A DNA stretch of 12,547 nt from a virus (Duplodnaviria > Heunggongvirae > Uroviricota > Caudoviricetes). The notes below the pieces were generated by a model. The model searched no databases and was not told the DNA's origin. It saw only the letters and a program-made list of their open reading frames with translations. Position 1 is the first letter of the stretch. Each line of letters opens with the position of its first letter. Location: the IMG/VR virus record IMGVR_UViG_2675903434_000005, one strand, 5' to 3'. This document shows positions 1,641 to 12,547 of the stretch, in pieces. The translations under genes were made by a program, and so were the position numbers.

Positions 1641-4112
1641 TTAAGAATCAGCCTGACTCGGGATCAGTTTTTGCCAGATAACTGAAACGTATTTTGCCTG
1701 GTAACGGGCGTCATCAAGTGCATTATGGCGCTCACCTTCGAATGGAATAGCCGTTCTGGCATCGAAGTCTATGGCTTTCCCCAGCTCAACGATTGTGCGT
1801 ACATCGCGATCGTTGTAGTAACGCCACGGGCAGGGGATCCCCTGCCGTTCGTATGAACGGCGCAAAATCGTGTTGTCGAAGTTGGCTCCATTTCCCCAGA
1901 CCTGAACAAAAAATTCACCGGAGTTTTCGTCGATAAATTCCCACAATTGTAACAGTGCATCATCTAACGGGATTTCATCGGTCATAATGGCAGATTGCGC
2001 TTCGCGTGATTGCTTAAGCCACCATTTAATGGTGTCCCGATCAATGACTCCGCCAGCAGTTTCCAGATCGATAGTCTTACTAAATTCCGGTCCCATATCT
2101 CCGGTTTGCGGATCGAAAAATATTGCACCTATTGAGATGATCGGGGCATCAGGATTTTTTCCCATGGTTTCAAGGTCGATCATTAGATGGTCACACGTCC
2201 TGCTGGTGGATGTGATTTCTTGATGACCGTTCACCTTAATTGAGTGATCTGCCGTCTCGCCAGTTTCATTATCGCTATCGTGATGCTGATTGCCGCCAGT
2301 GTTCTCCTTGTGTGGATGTTCAGCGCCTTCCATTTCCTCCGGATCATCTTCCTGAACTTCAATCTGATACTCTTCATCGAATGTTTCCTGGTATGTTGCG
2401 TCGCCCATTACCGCGCCACAATCAGGGCAGTTGCCGCCGCCGGTCTGACCGCAGGCGGTGCAGACTTTTTCCACTTCCTGTTGCGCCACTGATTCAGGCT
2501 GTTTCGTTTCTGGCTCGTTTTGTAACGCATTTGGGCTGTTTTGTTCCGCTTTTTGGTAGTTCCGTTCCGATTCATGCTGGTTCTGGTTCACAGAATCGCG
2601 GGTCTGGATCCCCTTAACCCATTTCGGATCATTCGGGTCACTAATCCCTTCAACAAATTCACCACGTGATGCAGCAAGCAACTTATCGGCGTCAGGCTGG
2701 ATGATATTGGCTGCCTGCATAATTTTGTTTACTTCGTCAGCGGTAACTTTTATCGGCTCTGGTTGTTCTGAATCTTCAGCGGTATCTACATTTTGCGGTA
2801 AGCCCGTGTATGTGCCATTTTTTCGGGCAAAATATTCTTCTTTTGTGATTTCAGTGGCGCCAGCAGCCAGTGCCTTATCCAGACCAGAAAGTTTGTTTGC
2901 GCGACCGTATTTTTCTCCGTCCTTATCTGCGAAGAGGAAATAGAACGGCCCCTCACGCTCTACAGATGGTTCAGCTTCCGGCGCGGTTTCATTTTTTGGG
3001 ATATCAGATACCTCAGTTTCCACTGCATCAGTTTGTGTTTCTGATGACTGGAGAACATCAACAGTGCCCAGGTCTGTTTCTTCATTCTCAAACACGCCCT
3101 TTGTCGTCAGGTATTCGCAGATATATTTGTTCAGTGCTACGGGATCTTTGTGAATGTCGATCGGACGCTCACGGACAAGGCCAAAAATAGTTTGGCGGTC
3201 GTAGCGAAGGGCATCAGGCTGTTTGCGCATTGATGCCGAGATACGCTTCCAGTCTTCGCGGTCGTTGTCGATAACTTCATTTTTTGCCCAGCGATGGATG
3301 CTGCCGTCAATGTTTCCGGCATCCACATCACCAGGCCAGAGAGCGTAGGCCAGTTCGTCATCCAGTGTTTTCCATGTCTGCTTGTATTCGCGATGAATGG
3401 CAGCAATGACCGGGCTGATTTTTCCTGTTGAATTTTCAGTGTACTGTTGATTGGCTCTGGCGCGGGCGAGATCAACAACAGACGTGTATTTTCCGGTTTC
3501 CTTGCGTTCACCTTCGCGACGTTTTTTCCAGATGCGCATCTCTGCCTGAATTTCGGGCCATTTAGCACCAGGAATACATTTATGCTTAACCCACCCAATG
3601 GCGTGCAACTTAAGCTCCGGATACATGGCGTTAACTTCTGGCATTTTCATCAACGCTTCAACGATATGTCCGTCGAATGTTGCCATGTCTTCCTGCAACA
3701 ATTCCTGTGCGCTAATAACCATATCAACGGTGATGTTTTCACATGTGTCGAACTTAACCATGACAGCGTTCTGTACTTCAGGGGCCAGCTTGTCAAAAGT
3801 GACGTTCATCGGATCGGATTCAGTCTCAACCGGGACAAAAGAAGCAGACTCCTCATCCCAGCGGTTTTCCTGCATATATTCAGCATCCCATGAATCGAGG
3901 GCAGGGCGGGGTATGCCAGGTTTATCCTCGCAGACAATAAATTTATAAGCGCAGTCCTGAGCAGCCGGATAATGTTCCAGGAATTGCCAGTGAAATTTTG
4001 CTCGAGCACGGCGTTCGTCGCCAGCTTCAATGGCTGTGGCTACAGCCACAGCGCCTTCTTCCCTTGTTGCCAGTTCGTCAGGAATAGCGGCGCAAATAAA
4101 GACTTTACTCAT
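1641..4112 (-). CDS. Exonuclease, intact YdfE-like: RecE-like N-terminal region, central CxxC-x7-CxxC zinc ribbon, C-terminal DEDDh 3'-5' exonuclease domain
   Basis: ORF track 1641..4148. Start set at ATG 4112 (MSKVFICAA), which has a GAGG Shine-Dalgarno about 10 nt upstream. C-terminal ~190 aa show DEDDh motifs: MIDLETMG (Exo I), WGNGANFD (Exo II), HNALDDARY (Exo III). The middle holds CTACGQTGGGNCPDCG and Asp/Glu-rich linkers. Occupies the position of ydfE in the Qin gene order. Confidence 0.8.
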   Translation of the reverse strand: MSKVFICAAIPDELATREEGAVAVATAIEAGDERRARAKFHWQFLEHYPAAQDCAYKFIVCEDKPGIPRPALDSWDAEYMQENRWDEESASFVPVETESDPMNVTFDKLAPEVQNAVMVKFDTCENITVDMVISAQELLQEDMATFDGHIVEALMKMPEVNAMYPELKLHAIGWVKHKCIPGAKWPEIQAEMRIWKKRREGERKETGKYTSVVDLARARANQQYTENSTGKISPVIAAIHREYKQTWKTLDDELAYALWPGDVDAGNIDGSIHRWAKNEVIDNDREDWKRISASMRKQPDALRYDRQTIFGLVRERPIDIHKDPVALNKYICEYLTTKGVFENEETDLGTVDVLQSSETQTDAVETEVSDIPKNETAPEAEPSVEREGPFYFLFADKDGEKYGRANKLSGLDKALAAGATEITKEEYFARKNGTYTGLPQNVDTAEDSEQPEPIKVTADEVNKIMQAANIIQPDADKLLAASRGEFVEGISDPNDPKWVKGIQTRDSVNQNQHESERNYQKAEQNSPNALQNEPETKQPESVAQQEVEKVCTACGQTGGGNCPDCGAVMGDATYQETFDEEYQIEVQEDDPEEMEGAEHPHKENTGGNQHHDSDNETGETADHSIKVNGHQEITSTSRTCDHLMIDLETMGKNPDAPIISIGAIFFDPQTGDMGPEFSKTIDLETAGGVIDRDTIKWWLKQSREAQSAIMTDEIPLDDALLQLWEFIDENSGEFFVQVWGNGANFDNTILRRSYERQGIPCPWRYYNDRDVRTIVELGKAIDFDARTAIPFEGERHNALDDARYQAKYVSVIWQKLIPSQADS

Positions 4113-4750: not shown

Positions 4751-4808
4751 AAAAAGGGCGGCAGAGCAGTCACGGAGTAAAACTGATACCGCCAAACGTC
4801 ACCAGAAA
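4751..4808 (-). ncRNA. dicF: DicF small regulatory RNA (antisense regulator of ftsZ and other mRNAs)
   Basis: Minus-strand sequence TTTCTGGTGACGTTTGGCGGTATCAGTTTTACTCCGTGACTGCTCTGCCGCCCTTTTT matches the E. coli DicF sequence as I recall it, including the 3' U-tract terminator. It lies between the ydfC-like gene and dicB, as in Qin. Confidence 0.7.
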
Positions 4809-7357: not shown

Positions 7358-7428
7358 CTGACAATAGCCATATCGAATCGCTTCCGGCAACTCGTGAGTA
7401 AAAAGATTCGGTATCAGAAGAGGTGAGT

Positions 7429-8499
7429 ATGGCTAACGCCTGGCTCAGATTATGGCATGACATGCCAAATGACCCTAAGTGGCGAACAATTGCCAGGGTG
7501 TCAGGGCAGCCAATTGCAACAGTGATGGCAGTGTATATCCACCTCCTGGTGAGCGCGTCACGAAATGTCACGCGAGGTCACATTGATGTCACGACAGAAG
7601 ATTTGGCAAGTGCGCTCGACGTGACAGAAGAGGTAATTGATTCAATTTTGCAGACGATGCAGGGGCGGGTACTTGATGGTGATTTAATCACTGGATGGGA
7701 AAAACGCCAGGTGCTGAAAGAGGACAACGGCAATATTTCGCAAACCGCAAAATCTCCGGCAGAGCGCAAGAGGGCGCAGCGAGAGAGGGAAAGAAAGCGG
7801 GAACAAAATGGCGATTGTCACGGCGCGTCACGAAATGTCACGCACATGTCACGACGAGTCACGACAGATAAAGATACAGATAAAGATACAGATCAAGAAG
7901 ATCAAAACACTATGGTCCATGGCGTAAAAAACGCCACGAACCAGGCAGGGGATGTTCAGACCGTCAATCCTGGTCAGCCAGCAGGCACGACACCGGAAGC
8001 CGATTCAGCGTATGCGCTGAAAGCCGATTCGGGCGCTGTGCAGCAGGTGATGACCCCAAGGCCGGAGCAATCACACCAACTGCAGCAGCCTGAAGCCGAT
8101 TCCGCCATTCAGCGGGAAGCCGATCGGGTAGTCCCGGAAAACACCGGGCTGTCTGTGGGACGAGTGGATTATCCGGATGTGTTCGAACAGGTCTGGCGGG
8201 AGTACCCGTTGCGTGCCGGAGCAAACCCGAAGAAATCCGCTTTCAGTGCCTGGAAGGCCAGATTACGCGAGGGGGTGCCACCAGAGGCCATGCTGGATGG
8301 CGTGAGGCGTTACGCAAGATACTTGGCGGCTACCGGGAAAACGGGAACGGAATTTGTTCAGCGAGCGACGACGTTTTTTGGACCGGACCGGAATTTTGAG
8401 AACCCCTGGTTGCTCCCGGTAAGCGGCACGAACAACCAGCGTTGTGTGAATCATATTTCTGAACCGGATACCGAAATTCCACCGGGCTTCAGGGGGTAA
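7429..8499 (+). CDS. Replication initiator (lambda O-like, replisome-organizer N-terminal domain), origin embedded in the gene
   Basis: ORF track 7423..8499. ATG 7429 is preferred, with AAGAGG about 5 nt upstream. N-terminus ANAWLRLWHDMPNDPKWRTIA resembles phage replisome-organizer N-terminal domains. The gene contains two iteron clusters and an AT-rich tandem repeat, as ori-lambda lies within O. Confidence 0.75.
   Translation: MANAWLRLWHDMPNDPKWRTIARVSGQPIATVMAVYIHLLVSASRNVTRGHIDVTTEDLASALDVTEEVIDSILQTMQGRVLDGDLITGWEKRQVLKEDNGNISQTAKSPAERKRAQRERERKREQNGDCHGASRNVTHMSRRVTTDKDTDKDTDQEDQNTMVHGVKNATNQAGDVQTVNPGQPAGTTPEADSAYALKADSGAVQQVMTPRPEQSHQLQQPEADSAIQREADRVVPENTGLSVGRVDYPDVFEQVWREYPLRAGANPKKSAFSAWKARLREGVPPEAMLDGVRRYARYLAATGKTGTEFVQRATTFFGPDRNFENPWLLPVSGTNNQRCVNHISEPDTEIPPGFRG
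7553..7600. repeat. Iteron cluster 1: four GTCAC(G) copies at 10-11 bp phasing (candidate ori)
   Basis: GTCACG at 7557, 7567 and 7588, plus GTCAC at 7577; helical-turn spacing, inside the replication initiator gene. Confidence 0.5.
7814..7866. repeat. Iteron cluster 2: five GTCACG copies at 10-11 bp phasing (candidate ori)
   Basis: GTCACG at 7817, 7827, 7837, 7848 and 7858. The 21-mer GCGCGTCACGAAATGTCACGC is shared with cluster 1. Confidence 0.5.
7867..7910. repeat. AT-rich tandem repeat next to the iterons (possible DNA-unwinding element with two GATC sites)
   Basis: Perfect 2 x 12-bp tandem GATAAAGATACA (7867-7890), then GATCAAGAAGATCAAAAC; encodes DKDTDKDTDQEDQ within the initiator. Confidence 0.45.
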
Positions 8500-8539
8500 G
8501 TGTTGATTTCTGGTCATGAGGTAATTTTCAGGAGGGCTT

Positions 8540-8962
8540 GTGGCAAAAGTTTTTACACAAGAAGAGCGAGAAAAAATTAAAGGGCAGGTTGTTGAACTCG
8601 TACGCCAGAGTGGGCGTGAGACGTTACGGCAACTGGAAGTCAAGACAGGTGCGACAAGATATCTGATGAGCGTTCTCGCAAGAGAGCTGGTTGCCAGCGG
8701 CGATGTATACAACTCCGGCTACGGGTTATTCCCCTCTGAACAGGCGCGTAAGGACTGGCAAAACGCCCGCAAAAAACTCTCGAGGGCAAAGGTGAAGAAA
8801 CCTGCTGTGGTTGATCCGGACCTTATCTGGTCATCACCTGACGGAGAAATACGTCGCTACGACAGTCGCCTAAACATAATCTGTCGCGAGTGCCGGAAGA
8901 GTGAAGCTATGCAGCGTGTACTGGCTTTCTATCAGGGTAATTTTCAGGAGGCGGTACTGTGA
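8540..8962 (+). CDS. Hypothetical phage protein (140 aa), GTG start
   Basis: ORF track 8540..8962. GTG at 8540 is preceded by GGAGGG; protein-like composition, C-terminal CRECRK; the stop abuts the next gene region. Confidence 0.6.
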   Translation: MAKVFTQEEREKIKGQVVELVRQSGRETLRQLEVKTGATRYLMSVLARELVASGDVYNSGYGLFPSEQARKDWQNARKKLSRAKVKKPAVVDPDLIWSSPDGEIRRYDSRLNIICRECRKSEAMQRVLAFYQGNFQEAVL

Positions 8963-9019
8963 GTGAAATTAGCTATCAGGCTTCAATTACCGCTGGCATT
9001 CGCATCAAAGGAGAGGAGC

Positions 9020-9376
9020 ATGGAAATAAAACCAGAGGATGAGTTAAGCAATATCGTTTTATTTCCGGTAAAAGAGGATGACCCTCGTAATCAGGTTAAT
9101 TTTCTTTATGAGCCATCGGAAAGACCATATTGTCATCACGCCTCTGTCCGGGTTGACGAAAAAGAGCGTCAGGTCCGCTGTAAAATCTGCGGTGCAGTTG
9201 TGGAGCCATTTGACTGGATGCTCTCTGTGGCGAAAAGAGAAACCAGACTGGCAGATGATGTAAGGCTCTTGCGTCAGGAGGAGCGGGAAAGGCGAAAAAA
9301 TATAGAAAAGCTAATTCAGATTGAGCGTAACGCGAAAGCGCGGATACGCAGGGCGACAAAATCCAGAACTGAATAA
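9020..9376 (+). CDS. Hypothetical protein with CHH...CxxC zinc-ribbon-like motif and basic coiled-coil tail (118 aa)
   Basis: Part of ORF 8963..9376. Start chosen at ATG 9020 (MEIKPEDE), with GGAGAGGAG immediately upstream. Motif PYCHHASVRVDEKERQVRCKICG. Confidence 0.6.
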   Translation: MEIKPEDELSNIVLFPVKEDDPRNQVNFLYEPSERPYCHHASVRVDEKERQVRCKICGAVVEPFDWMLSVAKRETRLADDVRLLRQEERERRKNIEKLIQIERNAKARIRRATKSRTE

Positions 9377-9469
9377 TTAAATTTAGCTCTGTTAAAAATT
9401 TAATCCTTAACCGGAGGGATTTCTGCACCCTCAGAACATCAGGAGGCCGCCCGAAAGGGCGGTAGTTAA

Positions 9470-9652
9470 ATGCGAAAGTTTAAAATAATTATTGAAACGG
9501 GAATAGCCGGTGGAGATTTCGAGGATGAATTCGAAGTGGATGATGATGCGACGCCTGATGAAATACATGACGAAGCAAAAGATATTTTCTTTAACTACTG
9601 CAATTACTCATATCACGAAATAAAAGACGAAGAGGAAGAACAAAATGGCTGA
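9470..9652 (+). CDS. Small highly acidic protein (60 aa, about 21 Asp/Glu against 5 Lys/Arg)
   Basis: ORF track 9470..9652. An AGGAGG Shine-Dalgarno lies 23 nt upstream, with a GC hairpin between it and the ATG. Confidence 0.55.
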   Translation: MRKFKIIIETGIAGGDFEDEFEVDDDATPDEIHDEAKDIFFNYCNYSYHEIKDEEEEQNG

Positions 9653-9821
9653 TTTTGGTTCAACTAAATACAACGTCAGTTTTGAAGAATGGCATGAACT
9701 GTTAATGGACTATGCAGAGTTACGTGGTGGCAGTGCTGCTGATGCTGAAGCATGGCGTGATGATTATGAAGCAGGAAAAACTCCGGTCGAAGCATATTGT
9801 GATGAGTGGGGCGATGAATGA
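9645..9821 (+). CDS. Small acidic Trp-rich protein (58 aa)
   Basis: Translated by hand: MADFGSTKYNVSFEEWHELLMDYAELRGGSAADAEAWRDDYEAGKTPVEAYCDEWGDE. GAGGAAG Shine-Dalgarno about 7 nt upstream; overlaps the upstream stop and ends in an ATGA overlap with the next ORF. Confidence 0.5.
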   Translation: MADFGSTKYNVSFEEWHELLMDYAELRGGSAADAEAWRDDYEAGKTPVEAYCDEWGDE

Positions 9822-10686: not shown

Positions 10687-10746
10687 ATGCGACACATAGA
10701 GATTAGCCTCTTACGGACCGAAAGGTCAAGGAGAAGCAGGCTATGA
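10687..10746 (+). CDS. Short leader ORF translationally coupled to hok (mok-like, 19 codons)
   Basis: ATG 10687 with GAGG upstream; its TGA stop (10744-10746) overlaps the hok ATG (10743-10745) as ATGA. Confidence 0.35.
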   Translation: MRHIEISLLRTERSRRSRL

Positions 10747-10898
10747 AGCAGCAAAAGGCGATGTTAATCGCCCTGATCGTCATCTGTTTAACCGTCATAG
10801 TGACGGCACTGGTAACGAGGAAAGACCTCTGCGAGGTACGAATCCGAACCGGCCAGACGGAGGTCGCTGTCTTCACAGCTTACGAACCTGAGGAGTAA
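10743..10898 (+). CDS. hokD: Hok/Gef-family type I toxin (51 aa), RelF/HokD-like
   Basis: Translated by hand: MKQQKAMLIALIVICLTVIVTALVTRKDLCEVRIRTGQTEVAVFTAYEPEE, which has the Hok/Gef signature (single TM helix, TRKxLCE, conserved periplasmic tail). AAGGAG Shine-Dalgarno upstream. Position before the Rem-like and YdfU-like genes matches Qin hokD. Confidence 0.8.
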   Translation: MKQQKAMLIALIVICLTVIVTALVTRKDLCEVRIRTGQTEVAVFTAYEPEE

Positions 10899-12412: not shown

Positions 12413-12459
12413 ATGCGTGATATTCAGATGGTTCTTGAGCGTTGGGGAGCGTGGGCGGC
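12413..12459 (+). CDS. N-terminal fragment of a Q-like late antiterminator, interrupted by an N gap
   Basis: ATG 12413 with GGAG 7 nt upstream. MRDIQMVLERWGAWAA matches my recollection of lambdoid Q-family N-termini. The reading frame after the gap cannot be established. Confidence 0.45.
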
Positions 12460-12469
12460 NNNNNNNNNN
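12460..12469. other. Run of 10 ambiguous bases (assembly gap or mask)
   Basis: Literal n x 10 in the sequence. Confidence 0.99.
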
Positions 12470-12547
12470 GCTTTGCCACAAGGTTTCTCCTCTTTTATCA
12501 ATTTGGGTTGTTATCAAATCGTTACGCGATGTTTGTGTTATCTTTAA

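Follow-up and report, generated by a model that had tools for sequence, protein, structure and literature searches.

A Ren-like gene and a mobile accessory gene downstream of a replication initiator without a loader gene in an Escherichia coli lambdoid prophage

Introduction

The gene for a lambdoid replication initiator is expected to be followed by one for a helicase loader, either lambda P or a DnaC-like protein, and the lambda O–P class has been described as an "initiator-helicase loader" module (Weigel and Seitz 2006, as cited in Thomason et al. 2021). In the stretch of viral DNA considered here, the 12,547-nucleotide (nt) IMG/VR record IMGVR_UViG_2675903434_000005 (hereafter, the window), the initiator gene is followed instead by two small genes, at positions 8540–9376. 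How would such an initiator obtain its helicase, and do the two genes have a part in it? A preliminary description of the sequence called both genes uncharacterised, recognized a loader in neither, and left two options: either the initiator recruits host loading functions through its C-terminal domain, or the small proteins are novel replication accessory factors.

We consider it probable that both are non-loader genes of a Rac/Qin-like lambdoid prophage, carried in its rightward early operon, one of them (gene 1) from the lambda Ren family and the other (gene 2) a mobile accessory gene, next to an initiator-only replication module that uses the DnaB–DnaC of its host, Escherichia coli. The arrangement is an ordinary one and has already been catalogued.

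Results and Discussion

The window has no loader gene

Both genes lie where the preliminary description had placed them, between the initiator gene and those for small acidic proteins, and their products have 140 and 118 amino acids (aa):

7429–8499, plus strand: replication initiator ("phage replisome organizer"), 356 aa, ATG start (PHROG 3729, RefSeq name)
8540–8962, plus strand: gene 1, Ren family/DUF977 ("LygF"), 140 aa, GTG to TGA (Pfam, PHROG, hhalign)
9020–9376, plus strand: gene 2, 118 aa, PHROG 1621 (PHROG match, 150 homologues, AlphaFold2 (AF2) model)

No open reading frame (ORF) of the window matched a DnaC-type or P-type loader or helicase family in Pfam, PHROG or NCBIfam, and the 12.5-kb window gave no tblastn match to E. 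coli DnaC, YdaV, a phage DnaC-like protein, lambda P or a P-like protein, bearing out the absence of a helicase-loader gene. Read directly, the products of genes 1 and 2 lack a GxxxxGK[ST] P-loop. They show no AAA+ or P-like signal, and both genes are found downstream of real loaders in other genomes, as described below. On these grounds neither small protein is a loader, as had been supposed, and the idea that either might be a loader in disguise was rejected.

Gene 1 belongs to the Ren family

The gene 1 product matches Pfam DUF977 (PF06163) over its full length (residues 1–136) at 98.5 bits (cut-off 22.1); it also matches PHROG 142, annotated "Ren-like exclusion protein", with E = 2.3e-47. 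Lambda Ren itself falls in PHROG 142 (E = 1.6e-41). In BLASTP, a C-terminal motif was aligned with that of lambda Ren at 12 of 20 identical residues (60%; E = 4e-7), and hhalign, comparing a profile of diverse DUF977 proteins with lambda Ren, gave a probability of 95% and E = 3.4e-8 over 73 columns that include both the winged helix and the motif. The common motif is N-x-[IV]-x-x-E-C-R-x-S-x-x-M-x-R-V-L-A-x-Y, and its N, E, C, R, S, M and R do not vary in one of our alignments. The two domains are placed as follows:

8558–8788, plus strand: winged-helix domain of gene 1, residues 7–83 (AF2, profile matches, Foldseek)
8873–8932, plus strand: Ren C-terminal motif NIICRECRKSEAMQRVLAFY, 60% identical to lambda Ren residues 73–92

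The N-terminal ~80 residues were modeled by AF2 with a predicted local distance difference test score (pLDDT) of ~90. A gene 1 profile matched the Z-alpha, MntR and AraR winged helices of the PDB at ~1e-3, and Foldseek matched the N-terminus to ArsR/MarR/GntR folds with a probability of 0.97–1.0. A published COMPASS result had labeled DUF977 as a winged helix (PMC2686095), the only treatment of DUF977 found in our literature search.

By these matches gene 1 is a homologue of lambda ren and a member of the Ren family. It is therefore not a novel accessory factor, its family being already catalogued as DUF977 or "Ren-like". As with lambda Ren, its product has a winged-helix N-terminus, and in the pR operon the gene comes directly behind the replication genes, a position also found in 78 of 80 loci anchored on DUF977. 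There are also differences. The gene 1 product is longer than lambda Ren (140 versus 96 aa), with a ~40-residue, poorly ordered insertion that separates the winged helix from the Ren motif. Lambda Ren is unmatched by Pfam DUF977, and lambda ren comes after O–P, whereas gene 1 comes after an initiator without a loader.

The lambda ren gene overlaps P and is translated together with O and P. RexAB excludes ren mutants, suppressors of which lie in O and P, and two-hybrid assays show binding of Ren to both RexA and RexB; a role of Ren in replication is no more than suspected (Thomason et al. 2021, bioRxiv 10.1101/2021.04.19.439022). By analogy with lambda, the gene 1 product would most likely have a Ren-like function on or around the phage replication complex, as a dispensable modulator or protector rather than as a helicase loader.

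The GTG start of gene 1 has AGGAGG 4 nt upstream. Its homologues are called "LygF" in several phage records, which, as far as we could tell, is a mere label: judged by title and abstract, the only bacterial papers among the literature matches listed for that name were Salmonella genome announcements, and the remaining listed titles dealt with other matters. K-12 YdaW, considered as another DUF977 protein, is in fact a DUF1627 protein.

Gene 2 encodes a zinc ribbon and a long helix

Taken mechanically, the gene 2 ORF spans 8963–9376 and encodes 137 aa. Its conserved start is the ATG at 9020, which is preceded by GGAGAGGAG. Met1 and the peptide that follows are conserved in 29 of 29 diverse homologues, RefSeq annotates the gene from this codon, and the end of another gene overlaps it (see below). 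For these reasons the 137-aa version from GTG 8963 was set aside, and ATG 9020 is almost certainly the real start. GTG 8963 has AGGAGG 7 nt upstream, and some translation from it is possible. Three features were defined in and around the gene:

8992–9039, plus strand: 3'-terminal relic of an Ea22-like gene that overlaps, in a different reading frame, the start of gene 2
9131–9190, plus strand: zinc ribbon of gene 2, C38-x-H40...C54-x-x-C57 (invariant ligands, two short AF2 strands)
9206–9370, plus strand: long helix of gene 2, residues 63–117, 55 residues (AF2 and conservation)

The ORF matches PHROG 1621, a family of unknown function, with E = 3.1e-56 (residues 20–136 of the 137-aa ORF, profile positions 1–120 of 134). 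We collected 150 homologues; those with a named source are almost all from Enterobacterales. In the AF2 model, a flexible N-terminus with a conserved ExELSNVVxFP sequence is followed by a two-strand zinc ribbon and a single 55-residue helix. The motif first described as CHH...CxxC is a real zinc motif, but is more exactly C38-x-H40...C54-x-x-C57, since C38, H40, C54 and C57 are invariant in 29 homologues while H39 varies. The basic helical tail also held up: residues 63–117 form a helix in the model, with pLDDT 83–95 over residues 71–110, and its second half, LRxEExxRRxNIEKLIQIERNAKARIRR, is nearly invariant. The homology and fold searches yielded no informative match for gene 2. A profile of its homologues found only a chance coiled-coil match to EzrA among PDB sequences, and Foldseek returned only generic zinc ribbons, with best E-values of 0.32 (PDB) and 0.25 (BFVD) and template modeling scores (TM-scores) of ~0.2, normalized to the query. 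The gene 2 product probably dimerizes via its long helix and would most likely bind a conserved host macromolecule through the invariant, arginine-rich part of that helix. It could be a new host-targeting factor, and the matches indicate no specific target.

The genomic context of gene 2 is more informative than its sequence. Positions 8992–9039 encode the last 16 aa of the Ea22-like protein gp18 of the Stx2 phage ArgO145 (tblastn, 100% identical), and in ArgO145 the gp18 gene overlaps the start of the gene 2 homologue. Judged by sequence, the relic marks the left edge of an imported cassette. Gene 2 travels as a unit with the DUF7167 gene and a gene for a 58-aa acidic protein, both in ArgO145 and in IMG/VR loci; the three lie together in ArgO145, among Ea22-like genes of the leftward (pL) operon, between the recombination genes and int, whereas in the window they lie in the rightward operon, after DUF977. 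Gene 2 is often preceded by an Ea22-like gene instead of DUF977, and databases hold fusions of it with Ea22-like N-termini. Gene 2 would be part of a mobile accessory cassette, made up of the Ea22-like relic, gene 2, DUF7167 and the gene for the 58-aa protein, which enters and leaves both early operons by recombination and stands outside the replication module. It is an uncharacterised mobile accessory gene, already catalogued as PHROG 1621.

Both genes occur with and without a loader

We mapped reference proteins by tblastn onto two sets of 80 IMG/VR loci, one anchored on DUF977 and the other on gene 2. Since these loci are closely related prophages, the following counts describe arrangements and not independent events:

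DUF977-anchored loci: initiator directly upstream and no loader, 54; loader upstream, 24; cut by contig end, 2
Gene 2-anchored loci: no loader, 27; DnaC-like or lambda-P-like loader upstream, 40; cut by contig end, 12

In the DUF977-anchored set, a DUF1627 gene always comes between a phage loader and DUF977, and it is missing from all loader-less modules (loci L024–L170). Among the gene 2-anchored loci, seven lack DUF1627 although they have a loader. Of the DUF977-anchored loci, 19 of the 54 loader-less and 7 of the 24 loader-bearing ones contain gene 2. The Rac/Stx modules, with their order of initiator, DnaC-like (YdaV) or lambda-P-like loader, DUF1627 and DUF977, resemble the window in having the same or related initiators, the same DUF977 gene and, often, the gene 2 cassette downstream. 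Phage 75/02 Stx, for example, has an initiator whose C-terminal domain is 63–65% identical to that of the window, followed by a DnaC-like loader, DUF1627 and a Ren-like gene; in Rac-SA53 the order is YdaU, P-like, DUF1627, LygF. The window differs from these in lacking both the loader and DUF1627, its initiator being joined to DUF977 by a 40-nt spacer. The DUF1627 protein (3216–3986 in locus L004) itself has winged helices and a weak match to the Ren-like PHROG 142 (E = 4e-8). In PhiR46_1 an exonuclease gene lies directly upstream of LygF, and a large gene annotated "primase" is on the opposite strand.

The loader-less order is found in complete phage genomes as well. In HannyBb, Tritos and mEp460_ev081 the initiator is directly followed by DUF977, and gene 2 is absent. 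The Tritos initiator is of the same type as that of the window, and that of HannyBb is lambda-O-like; the complete HannyBb genome has no annotated helicase, loader or primase and no tblastn match to DnaC-like or P-like proteins. The 2.3 kb from 7400 to 9700 of the window are 99.2–99.5% identical to prophages in complete E. coli genomes, among the best matches listed, and 98% identical to the phage-deposited records vB_EcoS-640R1 and vB_EcoS-813R8. The arrangement was present in 683 complete E. coli genomes, CFT073 included, counting genomes that hold at least 80% of the 2.3-kb stretch in one place.

Because both genes occur with and without loaders in relatives, their presence is independent of a phage loader. 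Gene 2 is dispensable for phages with the initiator of the window, provided that the deposited phages are viable. An initiator without an adjacent loader is a common and apparently functional layout in E. coli lambdoid phages rather than an indication of hidden loaders, which corrects the expectation from which the question arose. Ren-type genes accompany initiator-only and initiator–loader modules alike, and this bears on the question of what Ren does. As found, the two genes matter little: both are catalogued, and hundreds of sequenced E. coli carry prophages with this arrangement at 99% identity.

The initiator ends in a DnaT-like tail

A candidate for the connection to the host lies just upstream of the two genes:

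8443–8496, plus strand: DnaT-like C-terminal tail of the initiator, CVNHISEPDTEIPPGFRG (BLASTP, NCBIfam, PDB DnaT chains)

The last ~18 residues of the initiator, SEPDTEIPPGFRG, match the extreme C-terminus of E. coli DnaT, SEPDSQIPPGFRG. BLASTP aligned the two C-termini with 15 of 25 residues identical (E = 1e-7). The tail also aligns with positions 156–179 of the NCBIfam DnaT model, at a score of 18 bits compared to a cut-off of 201, and with the PDB DnaT chains 6aep, 2ru8 and 9zbt_D. What the window initiator has in common with DnaT is this short tail and not family membership: no DnaT N- or C-terminal domain was detected in it, and Pfam found no PF17948 (the three-helix, single-stranded DNA-binding C-terminal domain of DnaT), which some sister initiators do carry. 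Homology between the C-terminal domain of the initiator and that of DnaT was considered and rejected, as a profile search found the tail match alone.

The tail, IPPGFRG-stop, closes four otherwise unrelated initiator types, the lambda-O-like one included (loci L012–L197). Among the fetched loci it is present on all 116 initiators of the four types that have a DnaC-like loader or no loader downstream, and on none of the 21 initiators of the YdaU-SA53 type, which precede a lambda-P-like loader. Where the partner is a P-type loader, as for lambda O and for YdaU of Rac-SA53, the initiator has a ...TDW... ending. In HannyBb, the lambda-O-like initiator closes with the same 18–20 residues as that of the window (100% identical), and K-12 YdaU closes with a close variant. 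A separate scan, for a DNA pattern in which the tail is encoded with another arginine codon, produced 27 matches, of which 24 are tail-bearing initiators of other enterobacterial prophages. A DnaC-like gene lies 3 nt downstream in three of these 24 and a P-like gene in none, most being without a loader; a DUF977 ORF is found in two of the loci only (L180 and L189), and gene 2 in none.

In the mechanism that we propose, the replication module would consist of the initiator alone, binding iterons within its own gene, and helicase loading would use the host DnaB–DnaC, recruited by the C-terminal domain and DnaT-like tail. We infer from the sequences that this part of the protein would couple the origin complex to a DnaC-type loader–DnaB, and to that of the host when the phage has none. 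A more specific and more tentative idea, possible but in our view less likely to be right than wrong, is that the tail, ...S-x-P-D-x-x-I-P-P-G-F-R-G-stop, found in DnaT and at least four unrelated initiator families, is a portable docking peptide for the DnaC-type loader/DnaB that lets an initiator-only module recruit host DnaB–DnaC, with ...TDW... in the partners of P-type loaders. If so, it would also identify the long-sought element by which DnaT recruits DnaB/DnaC in replication restart. The occurrence of the tail with a DnaC-type loader or no loader, and never with a P-type loader, makes for a cheap, testable hypothesis on DnaB–DnaC recruitment by DnaT and initiators alike. This putative docking motif, outside 8540–9376, is the only part of the locus with some potential for novelty.

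The junction between initiator and gene 1

The short spacer between the initiator and gene 1 holds one of two copies of a 16-mer:

8520–8535, plus strand: junction 16-mer GGTAATTTTCAGGAGG, copy 1, supplying the Shine-Dalgarno sequence of gene 1
8936–8951, plus strand: junction 16-mer GGTAATTTTCAGGAGG, copy 2, at the 3' end of gene 1 (read directly)

This exact 16-nt direct repeat brackets gene 1, and each copy provides a Shine-Dalgarno sequence for a GTG codon a few nucleotides downstream. In loader-less loci, the 40-nt spacer between the initiator and DUF977 exactly repeats the last 16-nt region of DUF977. All 54 loader-less DUF977-anchored loci have this upstream copy, and none of the 24 loader-bearing ones does, the latter keeping the 3' copy only. 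Just 3' of the initiator stop codon, the spacer also contains a two-codon mini-ORF, ATG-AGG-TAA, at 8516–8524. In the loader-bearing relative L031, the ATG of the DnaC-like gene lies 8 nt after the initiator stop, in the context GTGTCATGA. The mini-ORF may be a relic of a loader start codon, and the sequence is suggestive, but only that, of the spacer being a recombination or deletion scar at short homologies, as is typical of lambdoid mosaic junctions.

Alternative explanations

Such a scar raises the possibility that the loader-less layout is a decayed, replication-dead remnant, in which a deletion took the loader and DUF1627 and left genes 1 and 2 beside the initiator. Initiators of the same type do occur with and without loader and DUF1627, the junction has the scar-like copy of the DUF977 3' end after the mini-ORF, and the loader ATG of loader-bearing relatives is at a comparable place, within a few nucleotides of the initiator stop. 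Defective members are frequent among E. coli prophages of this type, and the RefSeq locus closest to the window has frameshifted int and cro genes. We nevertheless consider decay unlikely. The layout is found in the 683 complete genomes and in records deposited as complete phages (HannyBb, with the source given as "bird poop", Tritos and mEp460_ev081), and all ORFs of the replication module are intact in the window. Furthermore, an origin by deletion need not mean lost function if host DnaC serves. The second option of the preliminary description, that the small proteins are new replication accessory factors that replace the loader and bridge the initiator to host DnaB, appears very improbable to us. 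It is consistent with the location of the genes directly downstream of the initiator in one operon, with gene 1 abutting the initiator in all 54 loader-less DUF977-anchored loci, with the suspected role of Ren in replication (Thomason et al. 2021), and with the nucleic-acid- or protein-binding architectures predicted for both proteins. However, real DnaC-like or P-like loaders lie upstream in 24 DUF977-anchored and 40 gene 2-anchored loci, and complete phages whose initiator is the same or related lack gene 2, which in ArgO145 belongs to the leftward operon. In the separate tail set, 21 of 24 tail-bearing initiators have no DnaC-like gene downstream; gene 2 is in no locus of that set, and the two loci with DUF977 fall outside the ~285-aa loader-less group. 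Finally, both proteins lack a P-loop, and neither shows similarity to DnaC, DnaI, lambda P or DnaD. Between the two options, recruitment of host loading functions by the initiator is the likelier, as suggested by the DnaT-like tail, and the option of accessory factors standing in for a loader finds no support.

For gene 2 taken by itself, we also considered a DksA/TraR-type or TFIIB-ribbon-type transcription factor, which would reprogram the RNA polymerase of the host in the manner of Orf73 from the lambda exo-xis region. TraR-like proteins exist in the lambda exo-xis region, and gene 2 is associated with accessory genes of the Ea22/exo-xis type. Its acidic N-terminus, zinc ribbon and long helix would suit such a factor; it has a weak match to the Pfam TFIIB-type zinc ribbon (E = 2e-4), and the top Foldseek matches are TFIIB and RNA polymerase ribbons. 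This Pfam match, at 21.2 bits, is below the gathering score of 29, however, and the Foldseek matches have E-values of 0.25 or more and TM-scores of ~0.2. Pfam gave no match to the DksA/TraR zinc-finger family, the order of ribbon and then helix is unlike that of DksA/TraR, and no profile or fold match to either type rose above threshold. This explanation is quite improbable. Our preferred reading, a Ren-family gene and a mobile accessory gene beside an initiator that uses host DnaB–DnaC, has points against it as well. Resistance to RexAB exclusion and interaction with RexA/RexB are known for lambda Ren only, not for DUF977 proteins, and no rexAB was seen in the window. The insertion sets gene 1 apart from lambda Ren, and its C-terminal part was modeled at pLDDT 50–74. 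The role proposed for gene 2 is a guess from architecture and conservation, in a protein with no informative match in PDB sequences or folds, BFVD folds, Pfam, NCBIfam or PADLOC. The similarity to DnaT is confined to the tail, a profile of initiator homologues matching DnaT structures in the last 23–26 positions only, and the association between tail and loader, drawn like the other counts from related prophages, spans about five initiator lineages. A 2026 structural paper on the preprimosome favors the N-terminal domain of DnaT, not its tail, as the candidate recruiter of DnaB/DnaC, and leaves this recruitment unresolved; it does not use the terms "C-terminal tail", "C-terminus", "C-terminal peptide" or "CTT".

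The initiator and its probable origin

The initiator matches PHROG 3729, "replication initiation protein", with E = 1.8e-256, and in part phrog_1701 and phrog_10469, both labeled "DnaD-like helicase loader". From the N-terminus on, it has an origin-binding part, a linker of low complexity and a C-terminal domain that is conserved. Its homologues begin with MAN.WLRLW. The wider family is mosaic, with at least three unrelated N-terminal (origin-binding) parts, a variable acidic linker and a strongly conserved C-terminal domain, and its members all terminate in ...ISEPDTEIPPGFRG. A repeat search revealed two clusters of iterons:

7557–7595, no strand assigned: iteron cluster 1, four GTCACG/GTCACA-type repeats in ~10-bp phase (repeat search)
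7817–7865, no strand assigned: iteron cluster 2, five GTCACG repeats in 10-bp phase, followed by a tandem ACAGATAAAGAT x2 at 7864–7887 (repeat search)

The nine phased iterons (4 + 5) and the A+T-richer tandem repeat that follows all lie within 7429–8499, and cluster 2 is the probable origin core. The clusters also encode repeated NVT/RVT and DKDTDKDTD peptide stretches, and homologues with extra NVTTCHGVSRRG residues presumably carry extra iterons. As in the lambda O–P module, the iterons are within the initiator gene, which is located after cro/cII-like genes and has a ren-type gene next in line; unlike that module, the window has no P, and its initiator ends in the DnaT-type tail, whereas lambda O ends in ...TDWIYGVDL. 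The review by Weigel and Seitz reportedly names modules of this kind "initiator-solo", a name that was not found in our literature search. A search of the literature for replisome organizer, lambdoid and helicase loader returned SPP1 papers only.

The surrounding early region

The window represents the early region of a Rac/Qin-type lambdoid prophage of E. coli. It extends from int to the gene preceding Q, and the late half of the prophage lies outside. The minus strand carries the integrase, excisionase, a large exonuclease, the DicF RNA and a cI-like repressor. On the plus strand, the order is DicC/Cro-like, YdaT/cII-like, initiator, gene 1, gene 2, small acidic proteins, hok/sok and a DUF968 HNH gene. 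Because promoter-like or terminator-like sites were not above chance in 8300–9800, the genes were read as part of one rightward operon. Rfam found no RNA family in 8540–9376, and the PADLOC catalogue of defence and anti-defence systems had no match for gene 1, gene 2, the initiator or the three genes downstream. Other features of the window are:

4756–4807, minus strand: DicF antisense RNA (Rfam, 76.7 bits)
9470–9652, plus strand: acidic protein, DUF7167, 60 aa (Pfam DUF7167)
9645–9821, plus strand: acidic protein, 58 aa
10574–10745, plus strand: sok antitoxin RNA (Rfam, 106.7 bits), adjoining a Hok-type toxin ORF at 10743–10898

Close to the right end of the window, at ~12440–12470, a brief stretch of ambiguous bases gives XXXX in the translations of three overlapping ORFs. 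Just 5' of the DUF7167 start codon, at 9425–9470, there is a G+C-rich hairpin, GGCCGCCCGAAAGGGCGG; it has no T-run and was not called a terminator.

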